Source: Ignavibacteria bacterium
GTDB lineage: Bacteria > Bacteroidota > Ignavibacteria > Kapaibacteriales > Kapaibacteriaceae
Direction of reading: 5' to 3'
Assembly: GCA_947458785.1 (NCBI GenBank)
Contig: CANGZU010000001.1
Coordinates: 4,269 to 68,268 of the forward strand
Length of the DNA: 64,000 nucleotides
In this document: positions 1-53,060 of the stretch, piece by piece
Position numbering within the stretch: position 1 is the stretch's first letter
Layout of the letters: each line of letters opens with the position of its first letter
The notes under the pieces: generated by a model
Told to the model about the DNA's origin: nothing
What the model saw: the letters and a program-made list of their open reading frames with translations, nothing else
Databases searched by the model: none
Program-made: the position numbers and the translations under genes

Positions 1-61
1 GACCGGCAGCTGCGCGTATTCCGGGAGACGGGCAGCATGACAGAAGTGGCGAAGTACATTC

Positions 62-1591
62 ATGAAGAATCAACACGTGGGCTCTAATCCTATGAAGCAT
101 CTGCTTACCATATCGCTGATTGTTCTCCAATGCCTAACACTGCACGCCGGTGAAGATGAAAAGCCGCAAAAGGCAGCTGTTCCCATCATTCATGAGCCCA
201 CGACCACGAATCACAGCATCACGATCGATGGAAATAAGATCGACTATCAAACGACCGTTGGTCACCTAAAACTCGTGCAGGAAGATGGGACACTTCGTGC
301 CAATGTATTCTTCATTGCCTACACAAAAAGTGGCGTCACTGACGCATCCGCTCGCCCCCTGACATTCTCGTTTAATGGCGGGCCAGGCTCCTCAAGCGTC
401 TGGTTGCATCTTGGCGTACTGGGCCCGCGCCGTGTACTGATGAACGACGACGGCACGACACTGCCGCCACCATACAAACTCGTCGACAACGACCAGTCAT
501 GGCTCGACCTGACGGACATGGTCTTCATCGATCCGGTGAGCACGGGCTTCTCACGTGCCGTCGATGACAAATCTGCCAAGCAATTCCACGGATACAATCA
601 GGATATCGAATCGGTTGGAGAGTTCATTCGCCGCTGGGTTTCGGATAACAAGCGCTGGTCTTCACCGAAGTATTTGATAGGCGAGTCATACGGCACAACG
701 CGCGCCAGCGCGCTCTCTGAACACGTGCAGTCAAAGTACGGCATGTACCTCAATGGTGTGATCCTCGTAAGTGCCGTGTTGAACTTCCAGACCATAGACT
801 TCAACGACGGCAACGACCTGCCATTTGCCACGTTCCTTCCAACCTATACCGCATCTGCCTGGTACCACAAACGCCTTCCGCCAGACCTGCTGGCAATGCC
901 CCTTGAGACTGTTGTTGAATCTGCACGTGTCTTTGCCAGCACGACCTACACACAGATGCTGATGAAGGGGTGGATGATGACGCCGGAGGAGCGCACATCT
1001 ACAATTGAGAAACTCGCCCGCTTTACAGGCCTTTCGCGGGAGTATCTCGATAAGGCCGACCTGCGCCCTATCATTTTTCGCTTCTGCCAAGAACTACTCC
1101 GCGACAGGGGGCAAGTAATCGGTCGCTTTGATAGCCGCTACACTGGAACGATCGCCGACCGACTGGGTGAATCCATGGAGCGCGATCCATCGCACCATCC
1201 AACAATTGCCGGGTGCTTTTCAACCTGTATCAACGACTATCTTACTCGTGAGCTTGGCGTCAAGACCACACTTCCCTACGAAGTGCTGACCGGACGCGTC
1301 TGGCCATGGGATTACTCCAATGTTCAGAATGAGTACCTCAACGTCGGACCTCGTCTTCGCAACGCCGTCCAGATGAATCCTTCGCTTCGTGTGTGGGTGC
1401 TCAACGGTTACTACGACCTGGCTACACCGTTCTACGGAACAGAGTACACATTCTCGCATCTGGGGCTGCCCGAGTCGCTCCGCAAGAACGTATCGATGTC
1501 CTACTACAAGGCCGGACACATGATGTATCTGCTCAAAACAGAGCTGGTGCAGATGAAGCAAGACGCCAAACAGTGGTATGGTGTTCGTTAA
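62..1591 (+). CDS. S10-family serine carboxypeptidase-like secreted peptidase
   Basis: NGGPGSSS motif matches the S10 GGPGCSS box; Ser-hydrolase GESYG motif; likely signal peptide from Met at 92 (MKHLLTISLIVLQCLTLHA). Confidence 0.7.
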   Translation: MKNQHVGSNPMKHLLTISLIVLQCLTLHAGEDEKPQKAAVPIIHEPTTTNHSITIDGNKIDYQTTVGHLKLVQEDGTLRANVFFIAYTKSGVTDASARPLTFSFNGGPGSSSVWLHLGVLGPRRVLMNDDGTTLPPPYKLVDNDQSWLDLTDMVFIDPVSTGFSRAVDDKSAKQFHGYNQDIESVGEFIRRWVSDNKRWSSPKYLIGESYGTTRASALSEHVQSKYGMYLNGVILVSAVLNFQTIDFNDGNDLPFATFLPTYTASAWYHKRLPPDLLAMPLETVVESARVFASTTYTQMLMKGWMMTPEERTSTIEKLARFTGLSREYLDKADLRPIIFRFCQELLRDRGQVIGRFDSRYTGTIADRLGESMERDPSHHPTIAGCFSTCINDYLTRELGVKTTLPYEVLTGRVWPWDYSNVQNEYLNVGPRLRNAVQMNPSLRVWVLNGYYDLATPFYGTEYTFSHLGLPESLRKNVSMSYYKAGHMMYLLKTELVQMKQDAKQWYGVR

Positions 1592-2631
1592 GAGGCGCGA
1601 AGAACTCCCCTCGGGCAAACGCTAACACATACTCCGCAGCCTACGCATGATGCGCGTTTGATTTCCTTGCCCTCTTGGGCGTAGGATCGGACATCGATGC
1701 CCATCTCACAATAGGTACTGCAGTTACCACAAGAAATGCACTGGCCTTGATTGGTCTCAATGCGGAATCGTGATGCATACTTCTGCAGAATGCCAAGCAG
1801 CGCAGCCATGGGGCATCCAAATCGGCACCATACACGTGAACCCAGAATCGGATAGAAACCCACTCCAACGACACCCGAGAATAGTCCACCGATGACAAAC
1901 CCATAGATGCGATTTGCTGTATCAGCGTATAGCTGCAACGCTGGATCTGGATGGGCATCAACATACCATAACAGTGCAGTGATTCCGATGATGATGACCA
2001 AGACTGGATAGATCGTCCACCGTTCAATTGTCCACGATAAGGGGCCTTTGCTGCTGAGATGACGGAACGAATCCCCGGCTGTCTCGGCCAATGCGCCGCA
2101 TCCGCAGACCCATGAGCAATACCAGCGCTTGCCATAGAAGTAAGTAAGCACGGGCGTCGCAACAACAAGCATGATCACACTCCACCATCCCATAAAGACA
2201 CGAAGCCTATCTGGACTGTCGATGAGTGGATGCAGCGTTGATGGGAAAAGATACTCGGGCTTCAAGGGCCAAAAGTAGCTGAAGTAGAACTCGCCGTGTC
2301 CACTGTGCTGAAGCATGTTCGGCAGTATGAATGCGAGAAGCAGTTGAACTGTAACAAGCGAGACCGTGCGTAGCATGTGATAGCGCTCGTTGCGATAGTC
2401 AATGATCTTCTTGACACCAAACATGCATACCACAAGTGTGTAGACTGCGCTGTACCAAAACCACACTGTCTGCGGTGCACCAAACGTTTCGGGTCGCCAG
2501 TAGACAATGGCATACAACGATGTTAGAACGATGCCCAGCCCATAGGCCATCCATCCCCTGTTGCGCAGCGATGATGACATTGGTGCAGAATTCACAGCTT
2601 CGGTGGGTATCGCAATCTGTATTGGTGTCAT
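1588..2631 (-). CDS. polytopic membrane protein with C-terminal 2x[4Fe-4S] ferredoxin domain (NapH/MauN-like)
   Basis: multiple hydrophobic helices; C-terminal CISCGNCSTYC...CVGCGVCVSVCP motifs; start refined to Met at 2631, giving an ATGA overlap with the upstream gene. Confidence 0.6.
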   Translation of the reverse strand: MTPIQIAIPTEAVNSAPMSSSLRNRGWMAYGLGIVLTSLYAIVYWRPETFGAPQTVWFWYSAVYTLVVCMFGVKKIIDYRNERYHMLRTVSLVTVQLLLAFILPNMLQHSGHGEFYFSYFWPLKPEYLFPSTLHPLIDSPDRLRVFMGWWSVIMLVVATPVLTYFYGKRWYCSWVCGCGALAETAGDSFRHLSSKGPLSWTIERWTIYPVLVIIIGITALLWYVDAHPDPALQLYADTANRIYGFVIGGLFSGVVGVGFYPILGSRVWCRFGCPMAALLGILQKYASRFRIETNQGQCISCGNCSTYCEMGIDVRSYAQEGKEIKRASCVGCGVCVSVCPRGVLRAS

Positions 2632-3797
2632 AGACACACCCTTGTTGAAAGCTGTGGATCGAACAACGCAGCACCAATGTTTCGTCGAACATAGTCCACA
2701 TCCCGACCCTGCATGATCCACTCGTTGCAGATGCTTTGGCGAAGACGTATGCCCAAGGCATGCACTCCAACGACCGAACCATCTGTGGTGTGCGCAATAC
2801 GCAGACAACGCGGCCGCTGCAAATCCATCCACAAGAACGTGTTGACATCATCTCGTGGAACTGTACCGTAGACCTGCCATTCCACATCAAAGAACTTGGC
2901 ACTGTTGTAGTAGAGTGATGGCAAATACTCCGACGATTGCCCGGTCAGCATTGCCGCAAGTGTTGCTCCATGCTCTCGTCCAACATACCATCCTTGACTA
3001 TTCCCCCAGGGTAGATGGGCACAATCTCCAATGGCAAAGATCCCCATTGCGCTTGTCTCGAACTTTTCGTTGACGACGATGCCAGAGGTGCATGTGATCC
3101 CTGCCTGCTCAGCTAACGACATGCTCGGTTCCATGCCAATGGCAACCACAACGAGATCGGCATCTCCTAGCACATCATCGGATGCTACGACCGTGTTGAT
3201 GCGCACGTCGATGCCGCGCCTTCGGACATGATCTGTGAGAAACTCTGACTCTTCTTCTGGAAGATGACTCCTGTAGACTCCGGATTCACGGATAAACCAC
3301 GTGGTTGGAATACCACGGGATGATAGTATCTCAGTAACCTCTGCGCCAATCAGACCACCTCCCACAACTGCCGCACGCTTGCAGCTGTGTATGGCTACGT
3401 TAAGTGCATCGATATCTGACAGCCGGGAGTACGTGAGCACCGTTCGATGCGAGGCAATCGATGCTTCAAGTAATCGTGGCTTTGCGCCCGTTGCAAGCAC
3501 AATGGCATCAGCCTGCATGGTTGTTCCGCTGCCCAAACTGCAGGTCTTGCTCTGCGCATCGATGTGCATACATGTATCATGCACAAGCCGTATGCCCATC
3601 CTATCCCACTCTTCATCACGATAGGGCTTGATGTGCTCACGCTCGAGTTGTCCGAGCGACACATACATCATCGCGGGACGCGAGAAATGGTAAGGGGCTT
3701 CACCTGATACGATCGTTACTTCGTAATCACTGAGCTCACGCAATTTGCGCGCGGCCGTGACTCCGGCAACACCATTACCGATGATGACAACATGCAT
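2628..3797 (-). CDS. NAD(P)/FAD-dependent oxidoreductase (pyridine nucleotide-disulfide oxidoreductase family)
   Basis: N-terminal VVIIGNGVAGV dinucleotide fold and a second VVGGGLIGAE Rossmann motif. Confidence 0.75.
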   Translation of the reverse strand: MHVVIIGNGVAGVTAARKLRELSDYEVTIVSGEAPYHFSRPAMMYVSLGQLEREHIKPYRDEEWDRMGIRLVHDTCMHIDAQSKTCSLGSGTTMQADAIVLATGAKPRLLEASIASHRTVLTYSRLSDIDALNVAIHSCKRAAVVGGGLIGAEVTEILSSRGIPTTWFIRESGVYRSHLPEEESEFLTDHVRRRGIDVRINTVVASDDVLGDADLVVVAIGMEPSMSLAEQAGITCTSGIVVNEKFETSAMGIFAIGDCAHLPWGNSQGWYVGREHGATLAAMLTGQSSEYLPSLYYNSAKFFDVEWQVYGTVPRDDVNTFLWMDLQRPRCLRIAHTTDGSVVGVHALGIRLRQSICNEWIMQGRDVDYVRRNIGAALFDPQLSTRVCL

Positions 3798-3814
3798 GGA
3801 GCGAATCTACTGCA

Positions 3815-4417
3815 TCACTGCGAGAGTAACTCTGGCATTACCGCAGTAAGGTCATCAACTGTGTCGATATCGCGCAGCACAGGCAGGTGGACAACAGAGA
3901 GTCCGGCTGATGTCGCACGCTCAAGTGTCTGCTCAAGCACGTGTTCGGTGCTCCAGGAGATGCCTTCAAACAGCCCCTCATGTAGTTGCTTCATGCCGAT
4001 GAGATAGTACCCTCCATCATGTGCCGGACCAATCACAACATCTGCAGTGTCGAGGCCTGTGATCGCCTGTTGCACGATCTGGGCTGTGATATTCGGCGTG
4101 TCGGAGCCGATAACAATCTGCACTGGATACGAAGAGCAGTCCTTCATGGCATTGATGATCCGCTCGCCGAGCGACGCACCGTGTTGTTTGATTGGACCAA
4201 CGGTTCCGGCCTGGACAAGGGTTATGTTGCCATCGACACATGCGCACACCTCATATCCAGAGCCTCTAGAGAGATTTGCAAACAGCGTTGCCATCATGAT
4301 CGAATACACATGATAGGCACGCTCCTCTCCAATGTCCTTGGCAAGGCGGGTCTTTACTCGCCCCCTCTCAGGAGCCCTGCAGACAACGATCACCACCGCA
4401 TCGTGCGGCTGACTCAT
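3815..4417 (-). CDS. TIGR04282/DUF2064-family transferase (arsenosugar-biosynthesis-associated, MobA-like fold)
   Basis: about 200 aa; N-terminal VVIVVCRAP...GRVKTRL and GSDTP...GPAHDGGYYLIG pattern typical of DUF2064; 4-nt overlap with the downstream hydroxylase gene. Confidence 0.55.
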   Translation of the reverse strand: MSQPHDAVVIVVCRAPERGRVKTRLAKDIGEERAYHVYSIMMATLFANLSRGSGYEVCACVDGNITLVQAGTVGPIKQHGASLGERIINAMKDCSSYPVQIVIGSDTPNITAQIVQQAITGLDTADVVIGPAHDGGYYLIGMKQLHEGLFEGISWSTEHVLEQTLERATSAGLSVVHLPVLRDIDTVDDLTAVMPELLSQ

Positions 4418-4851
4418 GATCTCTTGCCCCAGTACTTTGGCGGCACGAAGAAGAGTCCGTAGGCCTCTCCTGTATCATTGCCAACATGTTTATGATGCGC
4501 CATATGCATCTTATACACCGCCTGCAGGTATCTGTTCGTGGGAAGGGGCTGACGTAGAAACCGCTTATGGATCACCATGTCGTGCATCACGAAGTACGAC
4601 ATACCATACGCCGCGATACCAAGTCCAAAAAAGACAGAAGGTCCATCTGGCAAACCGATAGCGATTAGCACAAGAGCAATGCTTGTGAAGAAGAGCACAA
4701 ACACATCGTTTAGTTCAAGTGGATGCTTGGAAGGGGCATGATGCGTGTGATGAATGCGCCAGAGCGGACCATGCATTACATAGCGGTGAAACACCGTCGT
4801 AAATGCCTCCATACCAATGATTCCGGCGATGATGAAGAGAGCCTCAATCAC
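4414..4851 (-). CDS. fatty acid hydroxylase superfamily di-iron membrane enzyme (CrtZ-like)
   Basis: 145 aa with three His boxes (HHTHH, HDMVIHKR, HMAHHKH) and hydrophobic segments. Confidence 0.65.
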   Translation of the reverse strand: MIEALFIIAGIIGMEAFTTVFHRYVMHGPLWRIHHTHHAPSKHPLELNDVFVLFFTSIALVLIAIGLPDGPSVFFGLGIAAYGMSYFVMHDMVIHKRFLRQPLPTNRYLQAVYKMHMAHHKHVGNDTGEAYGLFFVPPKYWGKRS

Positions 4852-5420
4852 TGTTGCACCTCATGATAGCGGAAGCACGAAACTAGGTGATCATTGACCA
4901 TGCCAGTTGCCTGCATGTGGGCGTAGACAACAGTGCTGCCAACAAATGAGAATCCTCGCTGTTTGAGGTCCTTGCTGAGACGATCAGAGACATCCGTCTT
5001 GGAAGGCAAATCACTGAGTTCATGGAATGCGTTGATAGTTGGCCGACCATCCACAAAATCCCAAATGTATGCGTCGAATGAGCCGTGGCTCTCTTGAACA
5101 CGAAGAAACGCTTGCGCGTTGGCCACAGCAGCCCTAATCTTTTGTTGATTGCGGATGATGCCAGGATCTGCCATACAGCGGATGATGTCGGTCTCGGTAA
5201 ATCTCGCTACCACGTCTGGCCGAAAACCAGCGAACGCCTCGCGAAAGTTCTCACGCTTCTTCAGAACGGTATGCCAGCTCAATCCCGCCTGCATTGTTTC
5301 GAGAATGAGGAACTCGAACAAGAGCTGATCATCATGTAATGGCAAGCCCCATTCGTGATCGTGATAGTGCATGTAGAGGTCGTCCTTCATACACCAGCCA
5401 CATCGATGGATCGCACTCAT
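4848..5420 (-). CDS. tag: DNA-3-methyladenine glycosylase I
   Basis: RCGWC...HDHEWG...LILETMQAGLSW motifs as in E. coli Tag; start refined to the Met preceding RCGW. Confidence 0.8.
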   Translation of the reverse strand: MSAIHRCGWCMKDDLYMHYHDHEWGLPLHDDQLLFEFLILETMQAGLSWHTVLKKRENFREAFAGFRPDVVARFTETDIIRCMADPGIIRNQQKIRAAVANAQAFLRVQESHGSFDAYIWDFVDGRPTINAFHELSDLPSKTDVSDRLSKDLKQRGFSFVGSTVVYAHMQATGMVNDHLVSCFRYHEVQQ

Positions 5421-6472
5421 GCCAGCTGCCCTCCACACGAAGAGCCCGAGCCTGCTGTGCAGCCAAAACAATGGCGGTCTGTAGCGATCATACGCGACGT
5501 AATCTGCGCCTCGTCGAACTCAGCAATGTGCTTGACGCGTGATGCAACTGGCATCTCAAGCATCTGATTGAAGTCACAGTCGTAGAGACGTCCATCGTAT
5601 CCAACCGATATGGTGGTTCGACACATTACACCATGCGCGGCCGCAGGGTTAAACGCATCGACCAGTGTACGCATGTATCGCTCGTAGTTGCCTGAGTTGA
5701 CCAAGAATTCAAGGAATCTCGAGATCGGCATGTTCGTTATGCAGTGCAGACTATTAAAGACAACGTTGTGCTTATCGGAAAGATTGCGCTTGAACTCCTT
5801 CTCCAGTGATGCCTGGGGTCCGGGCAGCAATGCTCCAACAGGATTGTAGACTAGGTCTATAAGAAGCCCGGAGTTTTCAATCCCGTATCCCACATCATTG
5901 AGCATTTTGAGTGCTCTGATCGAGTCGTGGAACACGCCGCCCCCTCGCTGACGATCCGTATACGTCGCGTCGTAGAACGGCAGGCTTGAGACAACATGTA
6001 CACCATGCTCAGCGTAAAACTGCGGCAGATCATGATACTTCGGATTGGCAACAATGATCGTCAGATTGCAACGCACCATTACCATTACGCCACGTGCTGA
6101 AAGCTGCTCGACAAACCAGCGAAACTCTGGATTCATCTCTGGCGCACCACCGGTGAGATCTACTGTTGAGATGGTGCTCGCATCGAGCGCATCGAGACAC
6201 TGCTGCATGATCTCGCGAGACATGATCTCGGTTCGATCGGGTCCGGCATCAACGTGACAATGCTTGCAGGCCTGGTTGCACATCTTGCCAAGATTGATCT
6301 GCAAGATTGACGGCGAAAGCGGACGGAGCTCACCGATTCCAGAGTGCATGAGCTGTTCATCAAACTGCGGCAGGGAAAGCACTGCTGCATCCTGTTGCAG
6401 AAGTTGACGTTGGACACCAACGTTGGAGAGCTCAGATCCGCGTCGGATAAGGCTGGTAGTTGCAAGAGCCAT
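5417..6472 (-). CDS. arsS: radical SAM / Cys-rich domain protein, ArsS-like (arsenosugar biosynthesis family)
   Basis: CNQACKHC radical-SAM CX3CX2C box; C-terminal Cys-rich tail CFGCTAGSGSSCGG; about 350 aa as for the TIGR04167 family. Confidence 0.65.
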   Translation of the reverse strand: MALATTSLIRRGSELSNVGVQRQLLQQDAAVLSLPQFDEQLMHSGIGELRPLSPSILQINLGKMCNQACKHCHVDAGPDRTEIMSREIMQQCLDALDASTISTVDLTGGAPEMNPEFRWFVEQLSARGVMVMVRCNLTIIVANPKYHDLPQFYAEHGVHVVSSLPFYDATYTDRQRGGGVFHDSIRALKMLNDVGYGIENSGLLIDLVYNPVGALLPGPQASLEKEFKRNLSDKHNVVFNSLHCITNMPISRFLEFLVNSGNYERYMRTLVDAFNPAAAHGVMCRTTISVGYDGRLYDCDFNQMLEMPVASRVKHIAEFDEAQITSRMIATDRHCFGCTAGSGSSCGGQLA

Positions 6473-6482
6473 CGTGGTGTGG

Positions 6483-6815
6483 TTACATCGATACTTCGTT
6501 GACCTTGTTCATCATCTGCACGCCGTGCACAAGGGATGCACCGCCGCGAATCGCGGCCGACACATGTACGGCCTCCATCATCATCTGTTCGGTAGCGCCC
6601 TTCTGCATACTATCTGTGGTATAGGCATCTATGCAATATGGACACTGCACAGCATGTGCGACAGCAAGAGCAATCAGCGACTTTTCACGCTGCGTGAGAG
6701 CTCCTTCGGCGAATACCGCACCATACCAGTCGAAGAACTTTTCGGCCAACTCTGGCTGGAGCTGCGAGATAGTACCAAACTTTGGTAAATCAGCTGGATC
6801 GTAATAGGTCTTCAT
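6483..6815 (-). CDS. AhpD/carboxymuconolactone-decarboxylase family peroxidase-like protein
   Basis: 110 aa, CPYC redox motif in an AhpD-like core; lies directly upstream of the ArsS-like gene. Confidence 0.65.
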   Translation of the reverse strand: MKTYYDPADLPKFGTISQLQPELAEKFFDWYGAVFAEGALTQREKSLIALAVAHAVQCPYCIDAYTTDSMQKGATEQMMMEAVHVSAAIRGGASLVHGVQMMNKVNEVSM

Positions 6816-6848
6816 GGCTTTCCTTTCCGCGGAGAATTGGCAGTGACG

Positions 6849-7397
6849 TTACTGCTTCTCATGGAAGCTTACAACAACGACAACAAGAGCCGCGCAGACC
6901 AGTGATGTGATCTCTGGAGACCAGTGGAAGAAACCACTGTACATCATGAGACTCACCAGTGCTGCAGCCATAAGCTCGCGAAGTCCGCGCATGCGCCCAG
7001 AGCGAACACGCATGTAGTTCGATGCCATGAGGCCAGAGAATCCGAAAATTGAAACGGGATAAAGCATACTTAGGCCCATGTATCCAATGAGCTGGACAAC
7101 GGCAAGATCCTGAGCGATAGATCCGCCAAACAATCTGGCGCTCGAGATCAGGAGCAAGAGAAGAAAACATGCAAGAAAAACTCCCTGCAGCATCTTAGCG
7201 CCTTGCATGCCGAAAAATCTATCGGCAACGTAGCAGGAATACATGGCACCACCACCAATGGTCATGACCACGCGCCCCAGCTGTAGAAGCGGGTCTATCT
7301 CCATGATCACCGCCGCGATTGAAAGTACTGCGCCAGCGACGACGACGCTGACGAATCTCCACATCCAAGGATCGAGACGCTTTAGCATGTTCCACAT
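6849..7397 (-). CDS. hypothetical polytopic membrane protein
   Basis: ORF with about 6 hydrophobic segments; start may be the Met at 7364. Confidence 0.4.
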   Translation of the reverse strand: MWNMLKRLDPWMWRFVSVVVAGAVLSIAAVIMEIDPLLQLGRVVMTIGGGAMYSCYVADRFFGMQGAKMLQGVFLACFLLLLLISSARLFGGSIAQDLAVVQLIGYMGLSMLYPVSIFGFSGLMASNYMRVRSGRMRGLRELMAAALVSLMMYSGFFHWSPEITSLVCAALVVVVVSFHEKQ

Positions 7398-8326
7398 TCT
7401 CCATTTGCGTGCAAGTGCTCACTTTCTACCTGCACGGTAACGTGCGTCAACTGAAATCTGTTCCGCAGAACTTCACGCACTTCTCGCACAATCTCATCCG
7501 ATGACCTAGCGCTGACTACATGCACCGAGGCCGCATTTTCACGGATCGTGAGTTGCCAAACGTGCACGTCATGAACATCCTTGACACCAGGAATCGACAT
7601 TAACTCGCTTTTGACATCAAGGGGCGAGATGTTCAACGGAGCCGATTCCATCAGGATAACACCAGACTCACGAATCACGCGCACGGCACCGCGTGTAATG
7701 ATGATCGCAATAAAAATGGATATGATCGGATCGATCAGTTCCCATCCCGTGAGCTCGATCACGCCTGCTGCGATGATCACACCAAGACTCGACATTAGAT
7801 CCGTCATCACATGCAGATAGGCACTCCGCGTGGTGATATGCTCGGACTTGTGCAGATACATGGCGCTGATGGCATTGGCAAAAAAACCCACGATGGCAAC
7901 GTAGAGCATGATCTCTGAATCAACATGTGAGTGCTCATCACCTGCCATACGGCGGATTGCTTCGATCACAATGTAGATGCAGATGCCGATCAGCAGAAAT
8001 CCATTTGTAAGCGCTGCCAGAATCTCGATGCGCCGCAGACCGAAAGTGTATCGGATGTCATGTTGCTCGCGCGCCTTGGCAGCCAGTCGTAGACCAAAGA
8101 AGGCAATCAGCAGTGATGCCAGATCAACGAGCACGTGTCCAGCGTCGGAGAGCAATGAAAGACTGCCCGAGACGAGGCCACCAACAACCTGCACAGCAAA
8201 CACCGCGGCCGTTAGAACAACCGCTACACGAAGCGGCTTGATGTCGGTATGCTCGTGTATGTGCCCGTGATGGTGGTGATCATGGTGTTCATGGTCATGA
8301 TGACCATGATGGTGGTGATGTCCCAT
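7382..8326 (-). CDS. cation diffusion facilitator (CzcD/ZitB-like) metal efflux transporter
   Basis: His-rich N-terminus MGHHHHHGHHDHEHHDHHHHGH; 6 TM core and cytoplasmic C-domain typical of CDF. Confidence 0.85.
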   Translation of the reverse strand: MGHHHHHGHHDHEHHDHHHHGHIHEHTDIKPLRVAVVLTAAVFAVQVVGGLVSGSLSLLSDAGHVLVDLASLLIAFFGLRLAAKAREQHDIRYTFGLRRIEILAALTNGFLLIGICIYIVIEAIRRMAGDEHSHVDSEIMLYVAIVGFFANAISAMYLHKSEHITTRSAYLHVMTDLMSSLGVIIAAGVIELTGWELIDPIISIFIAIIITRGAVRVIRESGVILMESAPLNISPLDVKSELMSIPGVKDVHDVHVWQLTIRENAASVHVVSARSSDEIVREVREVLRNRFQLTHVTVQVESEHLHANGECGTC

Positions 8327-8329
8327 GAC

Positions 8330-9178
8330 TTAACGTCCAGTGAAGATGAGAACAAGGTAGATCGTCACTAACGGGGCTACAAAGAGCATTGAATCAAACC
8401 GGTCAAGGATTCCACCATGACCCGGAATGATGTGCGACGAATCCTTTACAACCGCATCTCTCTTGAGCCACGACTCTGCGAGATCGCCGATCGGGCCAAA
8501 GACGGCAATAATCGCACCGATGACAACGGCATGAATCATTGGAACGGTGGGCATGAGCCATGTGAACAAGCCGATCACAATCAGGACGGCAGCAATACCA
8601 CCCCCGATAGCCCCCTCCCAAGTCTTCTTGGGACTTACGCGAGGAAAGAGTTTATGCTTTCCGATGGCCAGTCCAGTAAAATAGGCGGCACTGTCGCACA
8701 TCCACACCCCGGCAAACAACGTAACTGTGAGTGAGGCTCCGTCGAATCCACCGATATTCACATTTGAACGAAGCATCATGAGCATCGACAGGCACACTGT
8801 TACGTAGACAACCCCAAAGACCGTGAGGGATGTATTGAGGAGAGCGTTTTCCTCGGCACGAAACATCTCTGCCGTGAGCGTGAGAAGCACGAATCCAATC
8901 GCGGCAACGGTCAGGTAGACCATGATCTGAGCACCTTGCGCCGTGGTGGACACAGTGTACAGGAGAAACAGGATCTGCAGTGCAATACTGCCAATAACTC
9001 CGACCACCTTGTTCGGTACAGCATGCTTCGACTCCGCAAGCTTGTAGAACTCGAGAAGCGCAAGGGTGGTCAAGGGGATGATGACAGCCGAGAATACTCT
9101 GGCGTCTGCATAGATCAGAGCTATCGTGGCTGGTATGCCTACTAGACCCACGAGGATGCGTTTTACCATGTTCGTCAT
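8330..9178 (-). CDS. cdsA: phosphatidate cytidylyltransferase
   Basis: multi-TM protein with C-terminal PGHGGILDRFDS CdsA signature. Confidence 0.8.
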   Translation of the reverse strand: MTNMVKRILVGLVGIPATIALIYADARVFSAVIIPLTTLALLEFYKLAESKHAVPNKVVGVIGSIALQILFLLYTVSTTAQGAQIMVYLTVAAIGFVLLTLTAEMFRAEENALLNTSLTVFGVVYVTVCLSMLMMLRSNVNIGGFDGASLTVTLFAGVWMCDSAAYFTGLAIGKHKLFPRVSPKKTWEGAIGGGIAAVLIVIGLFTWLMPTVPMIHAVVIGAIIAVFGPIGDLAESWLKRDAVVKDSSHIIPGHGGILDRFDSMLFVAPLVTIYLVLIFTGR

Positions 9179-9207
9179 GACGCGAAGCTACGTACTTTCG
9201 TAGCGCT

Positions 9208-10068
9208 ATGAACGTCTACAACCTCTCCGAACACGGCACATATAATGTTCTGCTCACGGGCGACTCTGATTTTGTGACAGAGTTCGCTGGGCTTCTACAG
9301 GCAGCAGAGATTCAGTTCAGTATCGTTGCGCCAATGGATGATATTGAAGATCTCGACGTTGATTTTGACGTCATGCAAGATATCGCGAGTGATGCCGGAG
9401 CTGATCCGTATGATCAGTTCACAGACAGACTTATCTCCGATATCCACTCGCTTACTGCGAACTACACGCATATTGTTGATCTGTCCATCACGTCGCACCT
9501 CGACCGAAAACTTGCTCTCGAACTCGCATCTGCTATGAATCCGCGCGCTGCCGTGATTGTATCGGTCCTTACCAACACAGCCACAGATATCGGCAGCATC
9601 TCCAATACAGGCGATCGTATCGTTGGCATCGGTCTAGCACCTGGCGCAATGAAGGGTCTTACAACGATTGACATTTGCAAGGGGCTCAACACCCCCGACA
9701 CCTATTTGGCAAGTGCGCGTGAACTAATGCGGGCGATTGGCTTTGCAACAGAGGTGGTGGAAGACCGCGTAGCATTGGTCCAGATGCGCGTACTGGCAAT
9801 GTTGATCAACGAGGCGGCATTCGCTGTCATGGAGGGCCTAGCAGCTCCGGAAGACATCGACAAGGCCATGATGCTCGGTGTGAATTACCCGAAGGGGCTT
9901 CTTGCTTGGGCAGATGAAATCGGCATCGGTGTTGTAACGCTGATCCTTGATGGTCTTTACAGGGAGTATCAACAAGAACGCTATCGTCCGTGTGTGCAGC
10001 TCAAGCAGATGATGCGCGCCGGGTGGACAGGTAAATCTGCTGGACGCGGCTTCTACATTTACAACTAG
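9208..10068 (+). CDS. 3-hydroxyacyl-CoA dehydrogenase family protein (degenerate NAD-binding loop)
   Basis: C-terminal 3HCDH dimerisation domain clearly conserved (DIDKAMMLGVNYPKGLLAWADEIG); N-terminal GxGxxG replaced by LLTGDSDF. Confidence 0.55.
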   Translation: MNVYNLSEHGTYNVLLTGDSDFVTEFAGLLQAAEIQFSIVAPMDDIEDLDVDFDVMQDIASDAGADPYDQFTDRLISDIHSLTANYTHIVDLSITSHLDRKLALELASAMNPRAAVIVSVLTNTATDIGSISNTGDRIVGIGLAPGAMKGLTTIDICKGLNTPDTYLASARELMRAIGFATEVVEDRVALVQMRVLAMLINEAAFAVMEGLAAPEDIDKAMMLGVNYPKGLLAWADEIGIGVVTLILDGLYREYQQERYRPCVQLKQMMRAGWTGKSAGRGFYIYN

Positions 10069-10840: not shown

Positions 10841-11743
10841 ATGAAACATGCATTAGTTATCTGCGCTGCTCTGATCAGTCTTCATGCGGCAGCTATCGCA
10901 CAAGACAAGTCCACAAAGCGTGCTGAACGTCGTGCCGCGATGACAGAGCTTCGCTCTGATTTGCGCACATGGTTCGAACGTGAAGTCTACGCTACGGTAA
11001 AGTCTTGGCATGAGCAATATGACGCATCACTTCCGGCAGAGGACCTGCGCACTCTGCAGGGGCTTCGTCAGGAAGCCAAACGTCTTAAGGAGTCTGTTGC
11101 GAACGATCTACAAAACATGCGCGGTACATTCGAGCGGGGCAACCGTAGCGAGCTGCGCGATAAGATGTCAGATCTCCGCGAGAAACATCGCGATGCAGTA
11201 AAGGATGTGCTTGAGCGCCTCAAGCCAATCGCAAAGCGTTCGCGCACGAAGCTGCGTCAGCTCTTCGATGACAACGAAGACAAGATTGAATCATGGCGCG
11301 GTCAAGCAAGAGATATCGTAGGTGACTGGCGCGATGAGCATGAGGACCTTGATTTCAATGGCATGTTCGGTCGTGGTGGACAGCAGTTGCCACTCATGGG
11401 CGGTGATGGACGCAAGGCAGCAATTCGCTTTATCCTTTGGGATGGCACAATGCCCCCTGCCCCCCAAGCGGGCATCTTTACACCGCAACGCATGCCAATG
11501 TCGGTGTCTCCTGCGCCAAGTGGCAACGCGGCTACAGTGGATGTTGCTAATGTTCCCGATGGACAACATGCGCTCCAGGTGTTCGACATGAATGGTACGC
11601 TGGTGCGCACGGTCAACGTCACAGCGCAATCAGGAAAGGTCAACCACCGGTTCGACCTCTCCGGTCTCCCTGCTGGCACATACATGGTAAGCATCAACAC
11701 ACCTGCCGGAAGAAGCACAACCAACGTGGTCGTTACAAAGTAG
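10841..11743 (+). CDS. secreted helical protein with T9SS C-terminal sorting domain
   Basis: signal peptide; charged helical middle; C-terminal about 80 aa beta domain (ALQVFDMNGTLV...GTYMVSINT) resembling a Por/T9SS CTD. Confidence 0.5.
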   Translation: MKHALVICAALISLHAAAIAQDKSTKRAERRAAMTELRSDLRTWFEREVYATVKSWHEQYDASLPAEDLRTLQGLRQEAKRLKESVANDLQNMRGTFERGNRSELRDKMSDLREKHRDAVKDVLERLKPIAKRSRTKLRQLFDDNEDKIESWRGQARDIVGDWRDEHEDLDFNGMFGRGGQQLPLMGGDGRKAAIRFILWDGTMPPAPQAGIFTPQRMPMSVSPAPSGNAATVDVANVPDGQHALQVFDMNGTLVRTVNVTAQSGKVNHRFDLSGLPAGTYMVSINTPAGRSTTNVVVTK

Positions 11744-11769
11744 ATTTATATTCATCAATCACACGGTCG

Positions 11770-11814
11770 GGCCCCGTTCATCACTCGTTGAGCGGGGCTT
11801 GTTCGTATATCTGC
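11770..11814 (+). terminator. candidate intrinsic terminator
   Basis: GCCCCG...CGGGGC hairpin followed by a TTGTTCG tail after the stop at 11743; the loop is long and the T-tract weak. Confidence 0.3.
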
Positions 11815-11860
11815 CGTGGTACAATGTATATTTGCGTGTTCAAACACATATGAGCGCACT

Positions 11861-12418
11861 ATGAAACTGCTTGGTATATCCGGCTCACTGCGTGAGAGTT
11901 CCTACAATACAGGACTGCTCACGACAGCAAGTACACTGCTCCCTGCCGATGTCACATTGACAATCGCCTCGCTACGTGAGATTCCGTTATACGATGGTGA
12001 TATCGACAATGAACCGCAACCATCTGCGGTAGTATTGCTGAAAGAGCAGATCGCTCAAGCAGACGGCGTAATCATCGCAACACCAGAATACAACTACTCG
12101 TACTCCGGTGTTTTGAAGAACGCAATCGACTGGGCCTCTCGTGGCGCTACACGCCCCTTCACAGACAAGCCCGTTGCCGTCATCGGTGCCAGCCCCGGAA
12201 ACTTTGGTGCTGTGCGCGCTCAGACAGATCTACGCAGATTGATGTCGGCCGTGAGCGGTGCTGTGCTTCCGCGCCCCGAACTCCTTGTGAGCAATGTTCA
12301 CAACAAAATCAACGAAGAAGGCATCATCACGGATGAAGCCACACTGAAGGTTTACAGAACGCTACTGACAAATTTCATTGAGTACATCAACCACAGCAAT
12401 CTAAAGCGGGGCTCATGA
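11861..12418 (+). CDS. NADPH-dependent FMN reductase
   Basis: MKLLGISGSLR start and IIATPEYNYSYSGVLKNAIDW motif. Confidence 0.8.
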   Translation: MKLLGISGSLRESSYNTGLLTTASTLLPADVTLTIASLREIPLYDGDIDNEPQPSAVVLLKEQIAQADGVIIATPEYNYSYSGVLKNAIDWASRGATRPFTDKPVAVIGASPGNFGAVRAQTDLRRLMSAVSGAVLPRPELLVSNVHNKINEEGIITDEATLKVYRTLLTNFIEYINHSNLKRGS

Positions 12419-13137
12419 TGAATGCCATTCACTACCCTGCGAACGATCGCGGACATGGCAACTTTGGGTGGCTTAACACGTATCACACGTTCAGCTTTGG
12501 GCAATACTACGATCCGTCGCGAATGAACTTTGGTGCACTTCGTGTCTTCAATGACGATACCGTTGCTGCCGGTGAAGGCTTTGGAACGCATCCTCACAAG
12601 AACATGGAGATCATCTCAATCCCGCTTGAAGGGGTGATCATGCACCAGGATTCGATGGGACACAAAGAAGGAATTGCAGCAGGCGATGTGCAGGTGATGA
12701 CTGCTGGTAGTGGAATCACCCATTCAGAATACAATGGTTCGCCGACCGACACATTGAAGTTCTTTCAGATCTGGATCATTCCAAACAAGGCCAATGTAGT
12801 ACCTCGATATGATCAGGTAACGGTAGGCCCAGTTGCCGCAAATACGATAACAACCGTCGTTGGTCCGGAGAACGCCGGAACACCCCTATGGATCCACCAA
12901 GAGGCGTGGCTTAGTATGGCACATGTTACGGGCGATACGGGCATAGAGTACACACGAAAAGGCACAGATACCGGCATCTTCACCTATGTCGTACATGGCA
13001 CGCTTGATGTTGCTGCAGATGATGCATCTATCACGCTTGGCAGTCGCGATGGTCTCGGCGTGATCGATGAGCAAAAGCTCACGTTCACCTCGAACTCGGC
13101 GTCTCAGTTTATCATCATCGAAGTTCCTCTGACATAA
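12415..13137 (+). CDS. pirin family protein (cupin)
   Basis: N-terminal GFGTHPHKNMEI pirin His motif; 4-nt overlap with the FMN reductase gene. Confidence 0.85.
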   Translation: MMNAIHYPANDRGHGNFGWLNTYHTFSFGQYYDPSRMNFGALRVFNDDTVAAGEGFGTHPHKNMEIISIPLEGVIMHQDSMGHKEGIAAGDVQVMTAGSGITHSEYNGSPTDTLKFFQIWIIPNKANVVPRYDQVTVGPVAANTITTVVGPENAGTPLWIHQEAWLSMAHVTGDTGIEYTRKGTDTGIFTYVVHGTLDVAADDASITLGSRDGLGVIDEQKLTFTSNSASQFIIIEVPLT

Positions 13138-36265: not shown

Positions 36266-36552
36266 AGATAGTCGCGTGATATATTTGCACGCCGATGTAG
36301 TTGCTGTCGCTAATCACGGCAGCACATTGAGGGAAGCACGCGAGAATCGTGCACGGTTGCGCCGCCGTAACGGCAGACGATCCTACCTAGTCCTGAGAGG
36401 ACAGTCACTGCGTGTGTGTTGATGACACAATGCGGGAAGACGGTTGGAGAGGATGAAGCCGAAGTCGGAATACCTGCTACATCGATTTCTACAACTGGAG
36501 ACGCTGTCTCCTCTGTCGCGCATCACGACAGACAATACTCAAGGGGCTTGCC

Positions 36553-37821
36553 ATGCGCAGCTTCATACTTGCATGTGCTCTTGCACTAACATGCACATCG
36601 AGCTTTGCCCAAAACAAAGCTGCTACTCCACCTCTTCCTTCAGCTGTGTTTTTCGACGACGGGTTCGCCCATGTGTTGTGCGCGCGCCTCGACGCTGATT
36701 ACGACGGCGAGATAGATACTGGCGATGCTTCCGCATCGTGGCTTGTGATAGACCCGGCAACGTTGAGCGTTGTGCGCAGCCAGCAGTTTGAATGGAAGGA
36801 CGTTAAAGTCACACGATCTGGGTCGTCGCTGGAAAAGGATGTTCTCGACCTTGTGATTGGCAAAGAGGTGGTACGCTATCAGACAACGACGTTAACGCCC
36901 CTTGGCAGTCTCTTTGAAGGTAAGATCTTTGGTCTTGATGCCAGCCAGGACCTGAAGACACTCTGGATGAGCGAGCGCCCGTCGTTTACAGAGCCGGGAA
37001 ATGTAATCGAGTTTAACGTCGATACCAAGCAGACCACGATCATCCCAGTTGGCGTGAACCCTCAACAGGTTTCGTATCATCAAACTGCTAGCGGGCTTGA
37101 GCAGGTACTTTTGATCTGTGAAGAGCTATTCGGTAAGGCAAATGGTACGTTCAGCATTGTTGATCTGAAGACTACACCACGTGCACAGAAGGTTATCGAA
37201 GTTGGTGATACCCCGAACTACTTTGTTACCGACGGCGATACGGCCTACGTCGTCGTTAACGGTTCTCATACCATTGTGATGGTCGATCTTGTAAAGCACG
37301 AGAAGGTCGGCACAATCGATGCGGGTACATCCGGCTTTGATGGTCCGCGAGAAGCAGCCGTATGGTTCGATCCAACATTGAAGTCCAAGGTGCTTCTGGT
37401 CTCGACATTTGATGAAGAGATTCGCATCTTTAACCTTCAGACCCGTGAACACATCAAGTCGATCAAACTGGCTGCCAAGCCAGAGGGCATCGCACTTCGT
37501 GGAAACGATCTATGGGTAACACAGACCTTCCGTAAGGACACCTACGAACCAGCCTCTGATGTGGCGATCTATGACCTGCTCAGCGCCGTCTCCGTCAATG
37601 ATCTTGAGACACCTTCGCTGCCCAAGGGCATCCTAGCTACCTCTGGCTCAGTCAGACTGCCATTCGAGCCGGGCAGCTCCGTTATAATCACCGATATCAC
37701 AGGTCGTTTGACTGCACTTTCTGCCGTAGTTTCGGGTTCGCAAACCATTGACTGTAGCATGCTGCCGCATGGCACATATCTGCTTTCCAATGGCAAGGAA
37801 TCTGTCAAACTCATGCGGTAA
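36553..37821 (+). CDS. secreted beta-propeller-like protein with T9SS C-terminal sorting domain
   Basis: signal peptide MRSFILACALALTCTSSFAQ; C-terminal ...VIITDITGRL...GTYLLSNGKESVKLMR CTD-like tail. Confidence 0.5.
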   Translation: MRSFILACALALTCTSSFAQNKAATPPLPSAVFFDDGFAHVLCARLDADYDGEIDTGDASASWLVIDPATLSVVRSQQFEWKDVKVTRSGSSLEKDVLDLVIGKEVVRYQTTTLTPLGSLFEGKIFGLDASQDLKTLWMSERPSFTEPGNVIEFNVDTKQTTIIPVGVNPQQVSYHQTASGLEQVLLICEELFGKANGTFSIVDLKTTPRAQKVIEVGDTPNYFVTDGDTAYVVVNGSHTIVMVDLVKHEKVGTIDAGTSGFDGPREAAVWFDPTLKSKVLLVSTFDEEIRIFNLQTREHIKSIKLAAKPEGIALRGNDLWVTQTFRKDTYEPASDVAIYDLLSAVSVNDLETPSLPKGILATSGSVRLPFEPGSSVIITDITGRLTALSAVVSGSQTIDCSMLPHGTYLLSNGKESVKLMR

Positions 37822-37828
37822 AAGCCTA

Positions 37829-40800
37829 ATGAGACTTGTTCTCGCCCTCCTCGTTCTTCCTGCTGTGCTCATCGCACAGCTTCTTCCCACGCCAAGTACA
37901 GAACAACTCGATATCGCATTTCGAGCGATGAAGTTTCGATGCATCGGCCCCTACCGAGCGGGTCGATCCCTGGCCGTTGCAGGGCACCCAGACCTGAAGT
38001 CGACTTACTACTTCGGAGCGACGGGAGGGGGCGTTTGGAAGTCGGAAGATGGTGGTGAGAACTGGCGATCAGTCTCTGACGCAACATTCGGATCTTCAAG
38101 TGTGGGGGCGATCACCATCGCCCCCTCCGATCCTAACGTTGTTTATGTAGGAATGGGCGAGACTGACATCCGGGGCAACATCTCGCCCGGCGATGGTATG
38201 TACAAGACCACTGATGGTGGCCATACGTGGAGGCACATCGGTCTGCGCGAAGCAACGATGGTAGCAGATATCGTTGTGGACCCCGAGGATGAGAACGTTG
38301 TGCTTGTCTCTGCGATGGGCAATGTCTTTTCAGCCAATGAAGAACGGGGCATCTACAAATCAACCAATGGCGGCGAAACATGGCGCAAGGTGCTCTATCG
38401 CAATGATAGCACCGGCGGCATGACGCTGAAGATGGACCCAAACAATCCACGCATCGTGTACGCTTCGCTTTGGCAGGCATACCGCAATGCATACAGCATG
38501 AGTAGTGGCGGCAAGGGCTCCGGTCTCTTCAAGAGTACGGATGGTGGAGAGACGTGGAGGGAAATCACGACGAATCCAGGAATGCCCAAGGGCATCCTCG
38601 GTAAGATCAATGTTGATGTTTCTCGCGCACAACGCAATCTTGTCTGGGCAATGATCGAAAGCGAGCACGGTGGTCTGTTCAAAAGTGTTGATGGAGGGTA
38701 TTCGTGGTCACGCGTGAGCACGTATGCCGAGATCCGTCAGCGTCCGTGGTACTTTAACCATGTCTATGCCGACCCGCTCGATGCCAACACTGTTTATGTA
38801 CTCAATGTTGGATGGCACAAGAGTACAGATGGCGGACGCACCTTTACTGGACTCGGTTCGAACCATGGCGACCATCACGACCTATGGATCGACCCAACTG
38901 ATCCTAAGCGCATGATCATCGGTGACGACGGAGGCGCTGTGGTTACAGAAGATGGCTGGAAGCACTGGACAGAGGACGACGTTGCAACTGCACAGTTCTA
39001 CCATGTGAGCGTTGACAACCATTTCCCCTACAGACTTTACGGCGCACAACAAGACAACACCACATGCTCTATTCCCCATCGTCTGATCGGGGGCTGGTCA
39101 ATCGGCAAGAACGACTGGTATCCAGTTGCAGGCTTCGAGAGCGGTTATGTTATTCCCCACCCAACGGACCCTGATATCACATTTGGCGGTAATTACTCAG
39201 GATACATCGGACGTAAATCCCTGAAGCTCAATCAGGAGCAAGACATTTCTGTCTACCCAGAGAACCCCATCGGCGAGGGATCTATCGATCGCAATGAGAG
39301 ATTCCAGTGGACCTTCCCGCTTATGTTTTCACCGCACGATAACAAGGTACTCTACACCACATCTCAGCACGTTTGGAAGAGCACAAACGAGGGTATGAGT
39401 TGGACGAAGATCAGTACTGATCTTACGAGAAACGATCCGTCGAAGCAGCAGCCCTCAGGAGGCCCGATCACAAAGGACAATACCGGCGTCGAGGTCTACA
39501 ACACCATCTTCACCTTCGCTGAGTCCCCCGTCAAGCAAGGCGTTCTCTGGACAGGAAGCGACTGCGGCTTGATACATGTGAGTACCGACAATGGCAACAC
39601 TTGGAAGAACGTTACTCCAAAGGGTCTGCCTGAATCACTGGTGAGTATGATCTCACCGTCGCCATTTGATGCAGGAACCGCTTATGCCGCAGTAAACCGC
39701 TATAAGCATGGCGACATGGCTCCATACATCTACAAGACAACAGACTACGGCGCCTCTTGGACGCTGATCACACAAGGCATCCCTGCAGGTGCATTTGCAC
39801 GCGTTGTTCGCGAAGACCCCTTCCGCAAAGGGCTGCTGTATGCGGGCACAGAACAAGGGATCTTCATTTCGTTCAATGCTGGAGCTACATGGAGCAGGTT
39901 CCGGCTGAACTTCCCAGTTACACCAGTTCACGACCTCGTCATACATCCAACGGAAAAGGATCTCGTGATCTGCACACACGGACGCTCTTTCTGGATCCTT
40001 GACGACCTGACACCACTGCACCAATACTCAGTCCCTTCCAAGAAGCTTCTTACGGCACATGCGCCACGTCACACCTATCGGGTGGCAGGGGGCTCATGGA
40101 GCGAACCAACAATGAACGTTGGGGAGAATGCACCATCTGGTGTGCAACTGTTCTACACCCTAACGGACACCACATCGAAGGAGCTGCGCATTACGATCCG
40201 AACCGAGCAGGGCGACAGTATCATAGCATACTCAAGCACAACAACTCCTAAGGGTGAACCGATTAAGATTGATCGCAATTTCCACGTCGACCCTCTCCAT
40301 CGTGCATCAGCGGAGGCACCAACGATGTACAGTGGTCTGAACAAGTTTAGATGGAACATGCGCTGGCCTGATGCCGAGGAGCTCGAGGGTGCACTCCTCT
40401 GGGGTGGCGGCACAGAGGGCCCGCTTGCTGCGCCCGGATGGTACAAGGCAACTTTCACACTTGGCGATCAATCAGAAACTGTTCCCTTTGAGATCCGCAT
40501 GGATCCGAGGCTCGATACGCCACGCGAAGATCTCGTTGCCCAGTTCGAACTTCACCAGCAGATCAACACGAAGCTCTCTGAGATCAACAAAGCAATCAAA
40601 CGTATTCGTGAAGTTCGCTCGATTGTTGCAAGTGTAAAGTCTAGCTGGTCAGACCTCGATTCTACCCAGACGAAGACTGTCGATACGCTTGCAAAGCATA
40701 TCAGCGATACGCTGACGTCGGTCGAGGATGCGCTGATCCAGACTAAGGCAAAGGCATTCCAGGATCTGCTGAACTATCCTGTAAAGCTCAACAACAAGAT

Positions 40801-42560: not shown

Positions 42561-42616
42561 TCACAAAACTACATTAGCCGCTACTGATATGCAACGAGCC
42601 CTCAATTCGGCACATC

Positions 42617-46690: not shown

Positions 46691-46698
46691 ATGCCTTG

Positions 46699-50812: not shown

Positions 50813-50834
50813 CTGTCGTACAGATTATAGCAAA

Positions 50835-53043: not shown

Positions 53044-53060
53044 TGATCATCATCCCTTAA

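Follow-up and report, generated by a model that had tools for sequence, protein, structure and literature searches.

A run of seven minus-strand genes at positions 1588–6815 of a 64,000-nucleotide stretch of contig CANGZU010000001.1, from an Ignavibacteria bacterium (the whole stretch is hereafter called the window), encodes an ArsS-family radical SAM protein together with an AhpD-like protein, a TIGR04282/DUF2064 protein, a CrtZ-type membrane hydroxylase, a two-gene redox pair, and the glycosylase Tag. We put at somewhat better than even the chance that this operon is a trimmed and partly re-equipped form, specific to its lineage, of a conserved Bacteroidota ArsS neighbourhood of the arsenosugar type, concerned with organoarsenicals. 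This reading is supported by families that score above their cutoffs, by overlapping gene junctions, by conservation of the cluster in nine loci, and by the retention of 157 of 161 conserved ArsS positions. Based on a listing of open reading frames (ORFs) and hidden Markov model (HMM) scans of the window, the seven co-directional genes, in order of transcription, are as follows.

6483–6815, minus strand: AhpD-like protein of the CMD family with a CPYC motif (TIGR04169, 188.1 bits, cutoff 120; PF02627, 65.8 bits)
5417–6472, minus strand: ArsS-family radical SAM protein (TIGR04167, 439.5 bits, cutoff 300; PF12345/DUF3641, 185.7 bits)
4848–5420, minus strand: Tag, DNA-3-methyladenine glycosylase I, 190 aa (TIGR00624, 233.9 bits, cutoff 232.5; PF03352, 273 bits)
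4414–4851, minus strand: CrtZ-type di-iron membrane hydroxylase, 145 aa, GTG start (by its His boxes and the PF04116 match of its homologues)
3815–4417, minus strand: TIGR04282/DUF2064 protein with a CofC/MobA-like fold (TIGR04282, 175.7 bits, cutoff 134; PF09837, 94.3 bits; CofC, 36 bits)
2628–3797, minus strand: FAD/NAD(P)H oxidoreductase, hereafter FADox (PF07992, 169 bits)
1588–2631, minus strand: NapH-like polytopic 2x[4Fe-4S] protein, 347 aa (Fer4_5, Fer4_9, and Fer4_21; TIGR02163, 61.7 bits, cutoff 213)

The original prediction had counted six genes in this interval; every gene that it listed is present on the minus strand within 1588–6815, but they number seven. Its description of the genes as co-directional and mostly overlapping was borne out, with 4-nt ATGA or GTGA overlaps at four junctions (ArsS/tag, tag/CrtZ-like, CrtZ-like/DUF2064, and FADox/NapH-like) and gaps of 10, 17, and 33 nt at the remaining junctions of the cluster. 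This is the pattern expected for a single translationally coupled operon, as which we annotate the predicted unit in this Kapabacteria/Ignavibacteria-like member of the Bacteroidota. Gene calls on a 102-kb metagenome contig that contains the window (ENA ERZ27263785 k141_906825, here L001) agree with the gene boundaries.

Nine distinct related loci are known from the lineage (L001, L002, L003, L008, L009, L010, L011, L168, and L170; L004 duplicates L003), and across L002–L011 their ArsS proteins share 65–75% identity with that of the window. All of them contain the AhpD-like gene and ArsS, as far as the contig reaches, and then DUF2064. Most also carry a CrtZ-like gene between ArsS and DUF2064 and the FADox/NapH-like pair following DUF2064; L010 is without the CrtZ-like gene and keeps the pair, and L168 comprises ArsS, CrtZ-like, and DUF2064 with no pair. 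The cluster architecture is inherited, not accidental.

Several differences were seen among these loci downstream of DUF2064. A gene for an N6_N4 DNA methyltransferase is inserted there in L002 (9136–10429), followed by a 172-aa ORF, and in L009 (3887–4702); the insert may be a small restriction-modification cassette. A signal-peptide protein of about 280 aa follows DUF2064 in L010 (approximately 11650–12513), L168 (5582–6514), and L170 (1219–2061) and is absent from the window. The three proteins share 43–61% mutual identity and look like predicted outer-membrane beta-barrels. Two nearly syntenic relatives, L008 and L010, were deposited as "Patescibacteria group bacterium" and "Candidatus Didemnitutus sp."; given such unlikely names, the contigs have probably been binned or labelled wrongly.

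The ArsS core and its Bacteroidota neighbourhood

The ArsS of the window matches TIGR04167 over model positions 7–303 of 303, its radical SAM motif CX3CX2C (C65-X3-C69-X2-C72) is invariant in the alignment, and its Cys-rich C-terminal tail, with the sequence HCFGCTAGSGSSCGG, ends in ...GCTAGSGSSCGG. Using the ArsS alignment, we collected 80 genome loci, all from Bacteroidota, of which 76 lie outside the lineage of the window. The window protein is 54–75% identical to the ArsS of these 80 genomes and 54–61% identical to ArsS proteins encoded beside an arsenosugar-type ArsM; its closest named relatives come from metagenome-assembled genomes labelled Bacteroidota (75%) or labelled Kapabacteria, Ignavibacteria, and Chlorobiota (65–70%). 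Of the 161 positions with at least 93% conservation among ArsM-linked ArsS proteins, the lineage retains 157, and the four differences (V/A, K/T, I/M, and F/L) are all conservative. A change of ArsS function was rejected on this count, and nothing in the lineage residues suggests a new substrate.

The TIGR04282 protein resembles PDB 3CGX, a "putative nucleotide-diphospho-sugar transferase" (E 6e-27), and is a putative nucleotidyl- or glycosyl-transferase with a CofC/MobA-like fold. It stands beside ArsS together with the AhpD-like gene, in the same order as in other ArsS loci. The proposal that AhpD-like, ArsS, and TIGR04282 form an arsenosugar trio held up: all three pass their NCBIfam cutoffs and are the commonest core of the 76 other ArsS loci. 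The possibility that the radical SAM and DUF2064 proteins would miss the arsenosugar families was likewise answered by matches well above cutoff (439.5 against 300 bits and 175.7 against 134 bits).

For the chemistry of ArsS we rely on published work. ArsS adenosylates DMAs(III) to form DDMAA (5'-deoxy-5'-dimethylarsinoyl-adenosine) (PMC13598754), a reaction also attributed to Cheng et al. 2021 as cited in PMC12159101. The arsS gene, which in Synechocystis shares a transcript with arsM, encodes the first committed step, and the product of ArsM is used in that step (bioRxiv 10.1101/2022.09.23.509062). In the literature found, ArsM and ArsS are the only characterised steps of arsenosugar or arsenolipid synthesis, with later steps undescribed there, and the search returned nothing on downstream genes or on ArsS-cluster neighbourhoods. 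In Synechocystis sp. PCC 6803, ArsM makes DMAs(III) and ArsS makes 5'-deoxy-5'-dimethylarsinoyl-adenosine. The window ArsS has the same CX3CX2C motif, DUF3641 domain, and Cys-rich tail, whereas arsM is neither co-transcribed with it nor present within the 64 kb, and AhpD-like, TIGR04282, hydroxylase, and redox genes are added.

We clustered the neighbouring ORFs of the 80 ArsS loci and named the representatives by NCBIfam and Pfam. A full cluster occurs in Flavobacteriia, Cytophagia, and Chitinophagia, and runs from AhpD-like, ArsS, rhodanese, TIGR04282, a purine-nucleoside phosphorylase (PNP), and an arsenosugar-type ArsM to an OlsE-like fatty-acid (FA) hydroxylase, DUF547, TIGR04283, GH113, FADox, and NapH-like. 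Its representatives include ArsM (NF038099, 574 bits), PNP (NF006054, 329 bits), TIGR04283 (215 bits), rhodanese (NF045521, 205 bits), and the OlsE-like hydroxylase (PF04116, 96.5 bits). The numbers of the 76 non-lineage ArsS loci in which each family was found are as follows.

AhpD-like, directly upstream of ArsS: 68 of 76
DUF2064: 45 of 76
ArsM: 30 of 76
PNP: 26 of 76
TIGR04283: 22 of 76
Rhodanese: 20 of 76
DUF547: 20 of 76
OlsE-like hydroxylase: 11 of 76
FADox with NapH-like, always together and always with DUF2064: 8 of 76

Since the pair and a membrane hydroxylase both recur in ArsS loci outside the lineage, they are members of the extended form of a known neighbourhood, and the window cluster is not a special fusion. 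Compared to the full cluster of L039, it has orthologues of AhpD-like, ArsS, TIGR04282, FADox, and NapH-like with identical order and strand, and again a gene of the membrane FA-hydroxylase superfamily within the cluster. In contrast, ArsM, PNP, rhodanese, DUF547, and TIGR04283 are missing, Tag is inserted, the hydroxylase is of the 145-aa CrtZ type instead of the OlsE-like type of about 293 aa, and NapH-like has 347 aa compared to about 527 aa in the full cluster.

The nearest analogue of the window is L084 from Confluentibacter flavum 3B (AhpD-like, ArsS, DUF2064, PNP, OlsE-like, ..., FADox, NapH-like). It shares with L083 from Salegentibacter sp. BDJ18 and with the window the genes AhpD-like, ArsS, and DUF2064, followed further on by FADox and NapH-like, and neither of the two has ArsM or TIGR04283 within 10 kb; L084 also encodes a membrane hydroxylase. 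Both keep PNP where the window has Tag, the OlsE-like hydroxylase of L084 takes the spot of the CrtZ-like protein, and L083 runs on into GT2-GT2-GT87 genes that the window does not have. The pair without ArsM or TIGR04283 nearby was found in L017 (Cesiribacter) and L071 as well as in L083 and L084.

A di-iron membrane hydroxylase is thus a recurrent member of Bacteroidota ArsS clusters, as is an NAD(P)H-FAD/polyferredoxin pair; in one lineage a dedicated offshoot of carotenoid CrtZ appears to have taken the place of the usual hydroxylase, with ArsM, PNP, and TIGR04283 dropped. The full clusters (L039 9658–20985; L044, L056, L059, and L072) suggest an ordered downstream route for which we found no description in the literature: PNP-type phosphorolysis of the arsinoyl-adenosine may be followed by nucleotidyl activation by the CofC-like TIGR04282 enzyme and by GT2-type transfer by TIGR04283. 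Rhodanese, DUF547, and the OlsE-like hydroxylase are further members of the full clusters beside this route. In L012, L013, L043, and L053 (Hymenobacter and some others), mostly without an adjacent ArsM, a channel of the MIP/aquaporin family lies directly beside ArsS, which fits a link to arsenite.

The redox pair, the membrane hydroxylase, and Tag

The best PDB relatives of FADox are TodA, BphA4, putidaredoxin reductase, and rubredoxin reductase, so that the FAD/NAD(P) oxidoreductase of the original prediction could be specified as a ferredoxin/rubredoxin-reductase type. Read by eye, its sequence has PYHFSRPAMMY where CoA-disulfide reductases carry the active Cys. The NapH-like protein has the loop motifs CSWVCGC and CRFGCP, invariant in 10 orthologues, and a C-terminal 2x[4Fe-4S] ferredoxin domain, features that it shares with the NapH/MauN ferredoxins. 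It differs from them in scoring below the TIGR02163 cutoff (61.7 against 213 bits) and in having no nap, nos, or mau genes nearby, and the product of 1588–2631 should be called only "NapH-like". Electrons would reasonably be expected to pass from NAD(P)H to FAD and on to the [4Fe-4S] clusters. The reductase belongs to the same fold family as those of multicomponent oxygenases (TodA, BphA4, and putidaredoxin reductase), whereas the ferredoxin here is membrane-bound and not soluble, with no Rieske or P450 oxygenase.

From the NapH-like alignment, we obtained 80 metagenome loci centred on NapH-like genes. FADox lies directly upstream of NapH-like in 61 of them, the rest being mostly truncated contigs. 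ArsS was found near NapH-like in 3, DUF2064 in 8, an OlsE-like gene in 1, and a CrtZ-like gene in none. The more frequent partners were DUF547 upstream (13 loci) and, downstream, a GT2 of about 240 aa (15), a GT2 of about 490 aa (15), and a GT87-like protein (9). Because the pair travels with DUF547 and GT2/GT87 genes and almost never with a hydroxylase, it is not a hydroxylase module. FADox and NapH-like make up a redox unit of two genes that stands on its own and has now and then been recruited to ArsS clusters, and they are no part of a hydroxylase system. An obligate reductase-ferredoxin-hydroxylase module was rejected, as the NapH-centred loci almost entirely lack hydroxylase neighbours.

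A conserved and widespread Bacteroidota module was also seen, with the order (DUF547), FAD reductase, NapH-like polyferredoxin, GT2 (about 240 aa), GT2 (about 490 aa), GT87-like. Examples are L083 (12518–19170), L017 (2503–9535), L132, and others among the metagenome loci L088–L167, mostly away from ArsS.

The family placement of the CrtZ-like protein relies on homologues and profile comparison. The protein itself had no Pfam match even at E ≤ 10; homologues at 37–64% identity carry PF04116 and the JGI label beta-carotene 3-hydroxylase. Four His boxes (HX4H, HX2HH, HX4H, and HX2HH; H22/H27, H34/H37/H38, H90/H95, and H116/H119/H120) are invariant in the alignment. All relatives with at least 57% identity and a known context lie between ArsS (or tag) and DUF2064, in eight loci; their codons usually overlap those of their neighbours, and the clade was never seen outside ArsS clusters. 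A relative at 49–50% identity (P0021, in L005) sits in a carotenoid cluster (Caroten_synth, CrtZ, MerR-B12, ECF sigma, CrtI, and CrtB), and a 37%-identity relative is located elsewhere. The flavobacterial-type CrtZ of L005 is alike in length and in the four His boxes, whereas the window protein belongs to an ArsS cluster, falls in the separate clade, and has no PF04116 match of its own. A search against 1.84 billion representatives gave 3 matches at E ≤ 1e-30, 254 at E ≤ 1e-10, and 779 at E ≤ 1e-3, and the small number of close matches marks a narrow offshoot of the CrtZ family. The CrtZ-like proteins are a lineage-specific narrow clade dedicated to the ArsS clusters of the Kapabacteria-like lineage. 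In an hhalign comparison of the CrtZ-like and OlsE-like profiles, the His boxes align (E 1.4e-4, probability 52%), which places both in the same predicted superfamily but not as orthologues. We infer that one type of membrane hydroxylase was replaced by another within the same pathway.

These data bear on the original prediction, which had described the cluster as fused to a complete reductase-ferredoxin-hydroxylase module. That view did not hold, as the pair occurs in 8 of the 76 non-lineage ArsS loci and a hydroxylase accompanies it in only two of these (L039 and L084), the six others including L083, L017, and L071. Nor is the module inherited as a unit: its parts separate freely, with the hydroxylase present without the pair in L168 and the pair without a hydroxylase in L010, L083, L017, and L071. 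A stronger form of the idea is a hybrid pathway, in which the reductase, the polyferredoxin, and the CrtZ-like protein would be an obligate three-component monooxygenase acting on an unmethylated or lipid-linked product of ArsS to give a new arsenolipid-like metabolite. Its components are adjacent and co-directional in the window, L002, L003, L008, L011, and L170, the FADox class feeds the ferredoxins of oxygenases, the di-iron His boxes are intact, neither ArsM nor TIGR04283 occurs in the cluster, the window, or the related loci, and the recurrence of membrane hydroxylases in ArsS clusters fits a lipophilic substrate. We nevertheless consider this pathway unlikely, given the free separation of its parts, the near absence of hydroxylases around NapH-like genes (CrtZ-like in 0 and OlsE-like in 1 of the 80 loci), the usual company of DUF547 and glycosyltransferases, and an ArsS without substitutions that point to a new substrate.

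The full length of the Tag protein can be aligned to E. coli Tag 1LMZ (199 bits), and the equivalents of the Zn ligands C4, H17, H175, and C179 and of Y16, E38, and W46 are identical to those of 1LMZ. Among the related loci, tag is found only in L001, L002, L008, and L009 and is absent from L003, L010, L011, L168, and L170. Most likely it is a normal DNA-repair gene, acquired by the operon within one sub-lineage. With its translational coupling to ArsS on one side and the hydroxylase on the other, tag occupies the place that PNP has in other ArsS clusters. Replacement of PNP by Tag as the adenine-releasing enzyme was rated unlikely, in view of the ordinary Tag features and of the five related loci without it, and because hydrolysis would yield no sugar-1-phosphate, which the CofC-like enzyme would need.

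The ordinary character of Tag and its patchy distribution also favour a second alternative, in which the CrtZ-like protein is a common carotenoid hydroxylase and Tag a repair enzyme, both merely sharing the transcript of a unit made of AhpD-like, ArsS, and DUF2064 with or without the redox pair. The 49–50% identity to the CrtZ of a crt cluster, with every catalytic His kept, and the housekeeping cdsA and CDF transporter genes just upstream on the same strand agree with such passengers. However, the CrtZ-like clade occurs in eight independent contexts that are always flanked by ArsS (or tag) and DUF2064, a carotenoid-gene context (crtB, crtI, and crtY) was not found for it, no crt genes were recognised in the window or flanks (by eye only, with no HMMs), and unrelated Bacteroidota ArsS clusters independently carry another FA-hydroxylase. 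We regard the passenger explanation as more doubtful still than the hybrid pathway.

Absent genes and the proposed route

The absence of ArsM and TIGR04283 from the cluster, as originally predicted, was confirmed for the cluster, the 64-kb window, and the related loci. The tblastn queries, drawn from other ArsS loci, comprised ArsM (30 sequences), PNP (26), and TIGR04283 (22), with rhodanese, DUF547, and OlsE-like proteins added. No match was found for any of these families in the window at E ≤ 1e-3 or in eight related loci at E ≤ 1e-5. ArsM and TIGR04283 might also have been encoded directly adjacent, outside the window; neither was called in the 6 kb visible to its left on L001. Among the 52 non-lineage Bacteroidota loci that extend 8 kb or more beyond ArsS on its downstream side, 30 lack an adjacent ArsM, so that adjacency is no strict requirement of the ArsS family, and a missing ArsM neighbour is the commoner state among ArsS loci. 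Because TIGR04283 is absent, the pathway here probably ends in a product unlike the one made by the full clusters.

Under the favoured reading, that of a trimmed and re-equipped ArsS neighbourhood, every step past ArsS is inferred. The substrate would be a trivalent methylated arsenical, either produced by an ArsM from another part of the genome or acquired from the surrounding community, which ArsS would adenosylate to a 5'-deoxy-5'-arsinoyl-adenosine. The CxxC AhpD-like protein could give thiol-redox support, acting on thiols or on arsenic. Adenine would be removed by an enzyme of the PNP or 5'-methylthioadenosine (MTA)-phosphorylase type, a housekeeping one here and cluster-encoded in other taxa, and the CofC-like TIGR04282 enzyme could then process, activate, or transfer the ribosyl moiety. 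In the membrane, the di-iron hydroxylase may modify a lipophilic acceptor or product, and the NAD(P)H-FAD reductase with the NapH-like polyferredoxin may be an accessory electron supply for ArsS, the hydroxylase, or both, without which some relatives manage. The lipid-linked product suggested in the original prediction is plausible as a hypothesis.

Several points weigh against this reading. The sample of ArsS loci is biased, being the best-scoring 80 and all from Bacteroidota. ArsM, PNP, and TIGR04283 were not found in the window or in the 2–10 kb flanks of the related loci, and with no ArsM over that searched extent the arsenical substrate is assumed. The roles given to TIGR04282, the AhpD-like protein, the hydroxylase, and the redox pair were assigned from association and fold similarity only. 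The 49–50% identity of the CrtZ-like protein to a genuine cluster-encoded CrtZ means that it could hydroxylate carotenoids. The pair is mostly found away from ArsS, as only about 12 of the 80 NapH-centred loci hold an ArsS-cluster family other than DUF547, and its adjacency to ArsS here could reflect a different shared process.

A joint version would take in most genes of the operon at once. ArsS would act on an exogenous or unmethylated trivalent arsenical, Tag would release adenine from the 5'-arsinoyl-adenosine, and the CrtZ-clade hydroxylase, fed by the FAD reductase and NapH-like protein, would act on a lipid or isoprenoid partner by oxidation, and the outcome would resemble an arsenolipid, a novel membrane-associated organoarsenical made without ArsM or TIGR04283 of its own. 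We judge this combination improbable. Least probable of all, and very much so, is a non-arsenic role in which the ArsS-family enzyme adenosylates another nucleophile (a selenium, antimony, or sulfur species, or a lipid): it would explain the lack of ArsM at the locus and in the window, the adjacent genes are a CDF metal transporter and cdsA with no arsenic transporter or resistance gene there, and the characterised ArsS in the literature found is only cyanobacterial, but the protein far exceeds the TIGR04167 equivalog cutoff, identity to ArsM-neighbouring ArsS reaches 54–61% with 157 of 161 conserved positions kept, and 30 of 52 ArsS loci, even in cultured Bacteroidota, have no adjacent ArsM, some with a MIP channel instead.

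The advance is incremental, as the families and their association are already in NCBIfam names, and new chemistry is not shown here. What is specific to this cluster is a single feature, its hydroxylase from a clade that derives from CrtZ and is dedicated to ArsS clusters. The compact operon (five core genes plus CrtZ-like and Tag) could serve, when expressed, to ask what becomes of ArsS products without co-encoded methylation and glycosyl transfer, and could show whether the end product is lipid-linked.

Flanking genes and other features of the window

Upstream on the same strand (6849–9178, minus), the operon is preceded by cdsA (CDP-diglyceride synthase), a His-rich CDF metal transporter gene, and a gene for a 179-aa membrane protein with no family match. 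This block keeps its position in L002, L003, L008, L011, and L168 and is looser in L010, where extra sequence lies between; the 179-aa gene stays with the CDF gene where other genes are inserted (L003 and L010). We rejected all three as members of the system, as their synteny is confined to the lineage and none occurs in other ArsS loci.

To the left of the window, L001 encodes Peptidase_S10, GCS2, two unknown proteins, and Peptidase_S8. A Por_Secre_tail gene was noted near the cluster, and together with the labels of the closest ArsS relatives it points to the Kapabacteria/Ignavibacteria-like placement of the organism within the Bacteroidota. The stop codons of NapH-like (minus strand) and of the convergent Peptidase_S10 gene (plus strand) overlap at window positions 1588–1591, which leaves no intergenic room for a terminator. 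A scan of 1–9600 for sigma-70 promoters and terminators gave counts at shuffle level and is uninformative, since the tool does not cover Bacteroidota-type promoters.

Elsewhere in the window, a cobalamin riboswitch (RF00174, 72.3 bits, gathering score 31.5) was found at 36281–36495 on the plus strand, just upstream of a 422-aa ORF (36553–37821) and a 1085-aa ORF (37748–41005), the latter BNR/sortilin-like by eye. Also by eye, the minus strand carries an arginine-biosynthesis run (argH, argB, argC, argG-like, and others) at approximately 42600–49400 and an rpoA, secY, and ribosomal-protein region at approximately 50800–64000.

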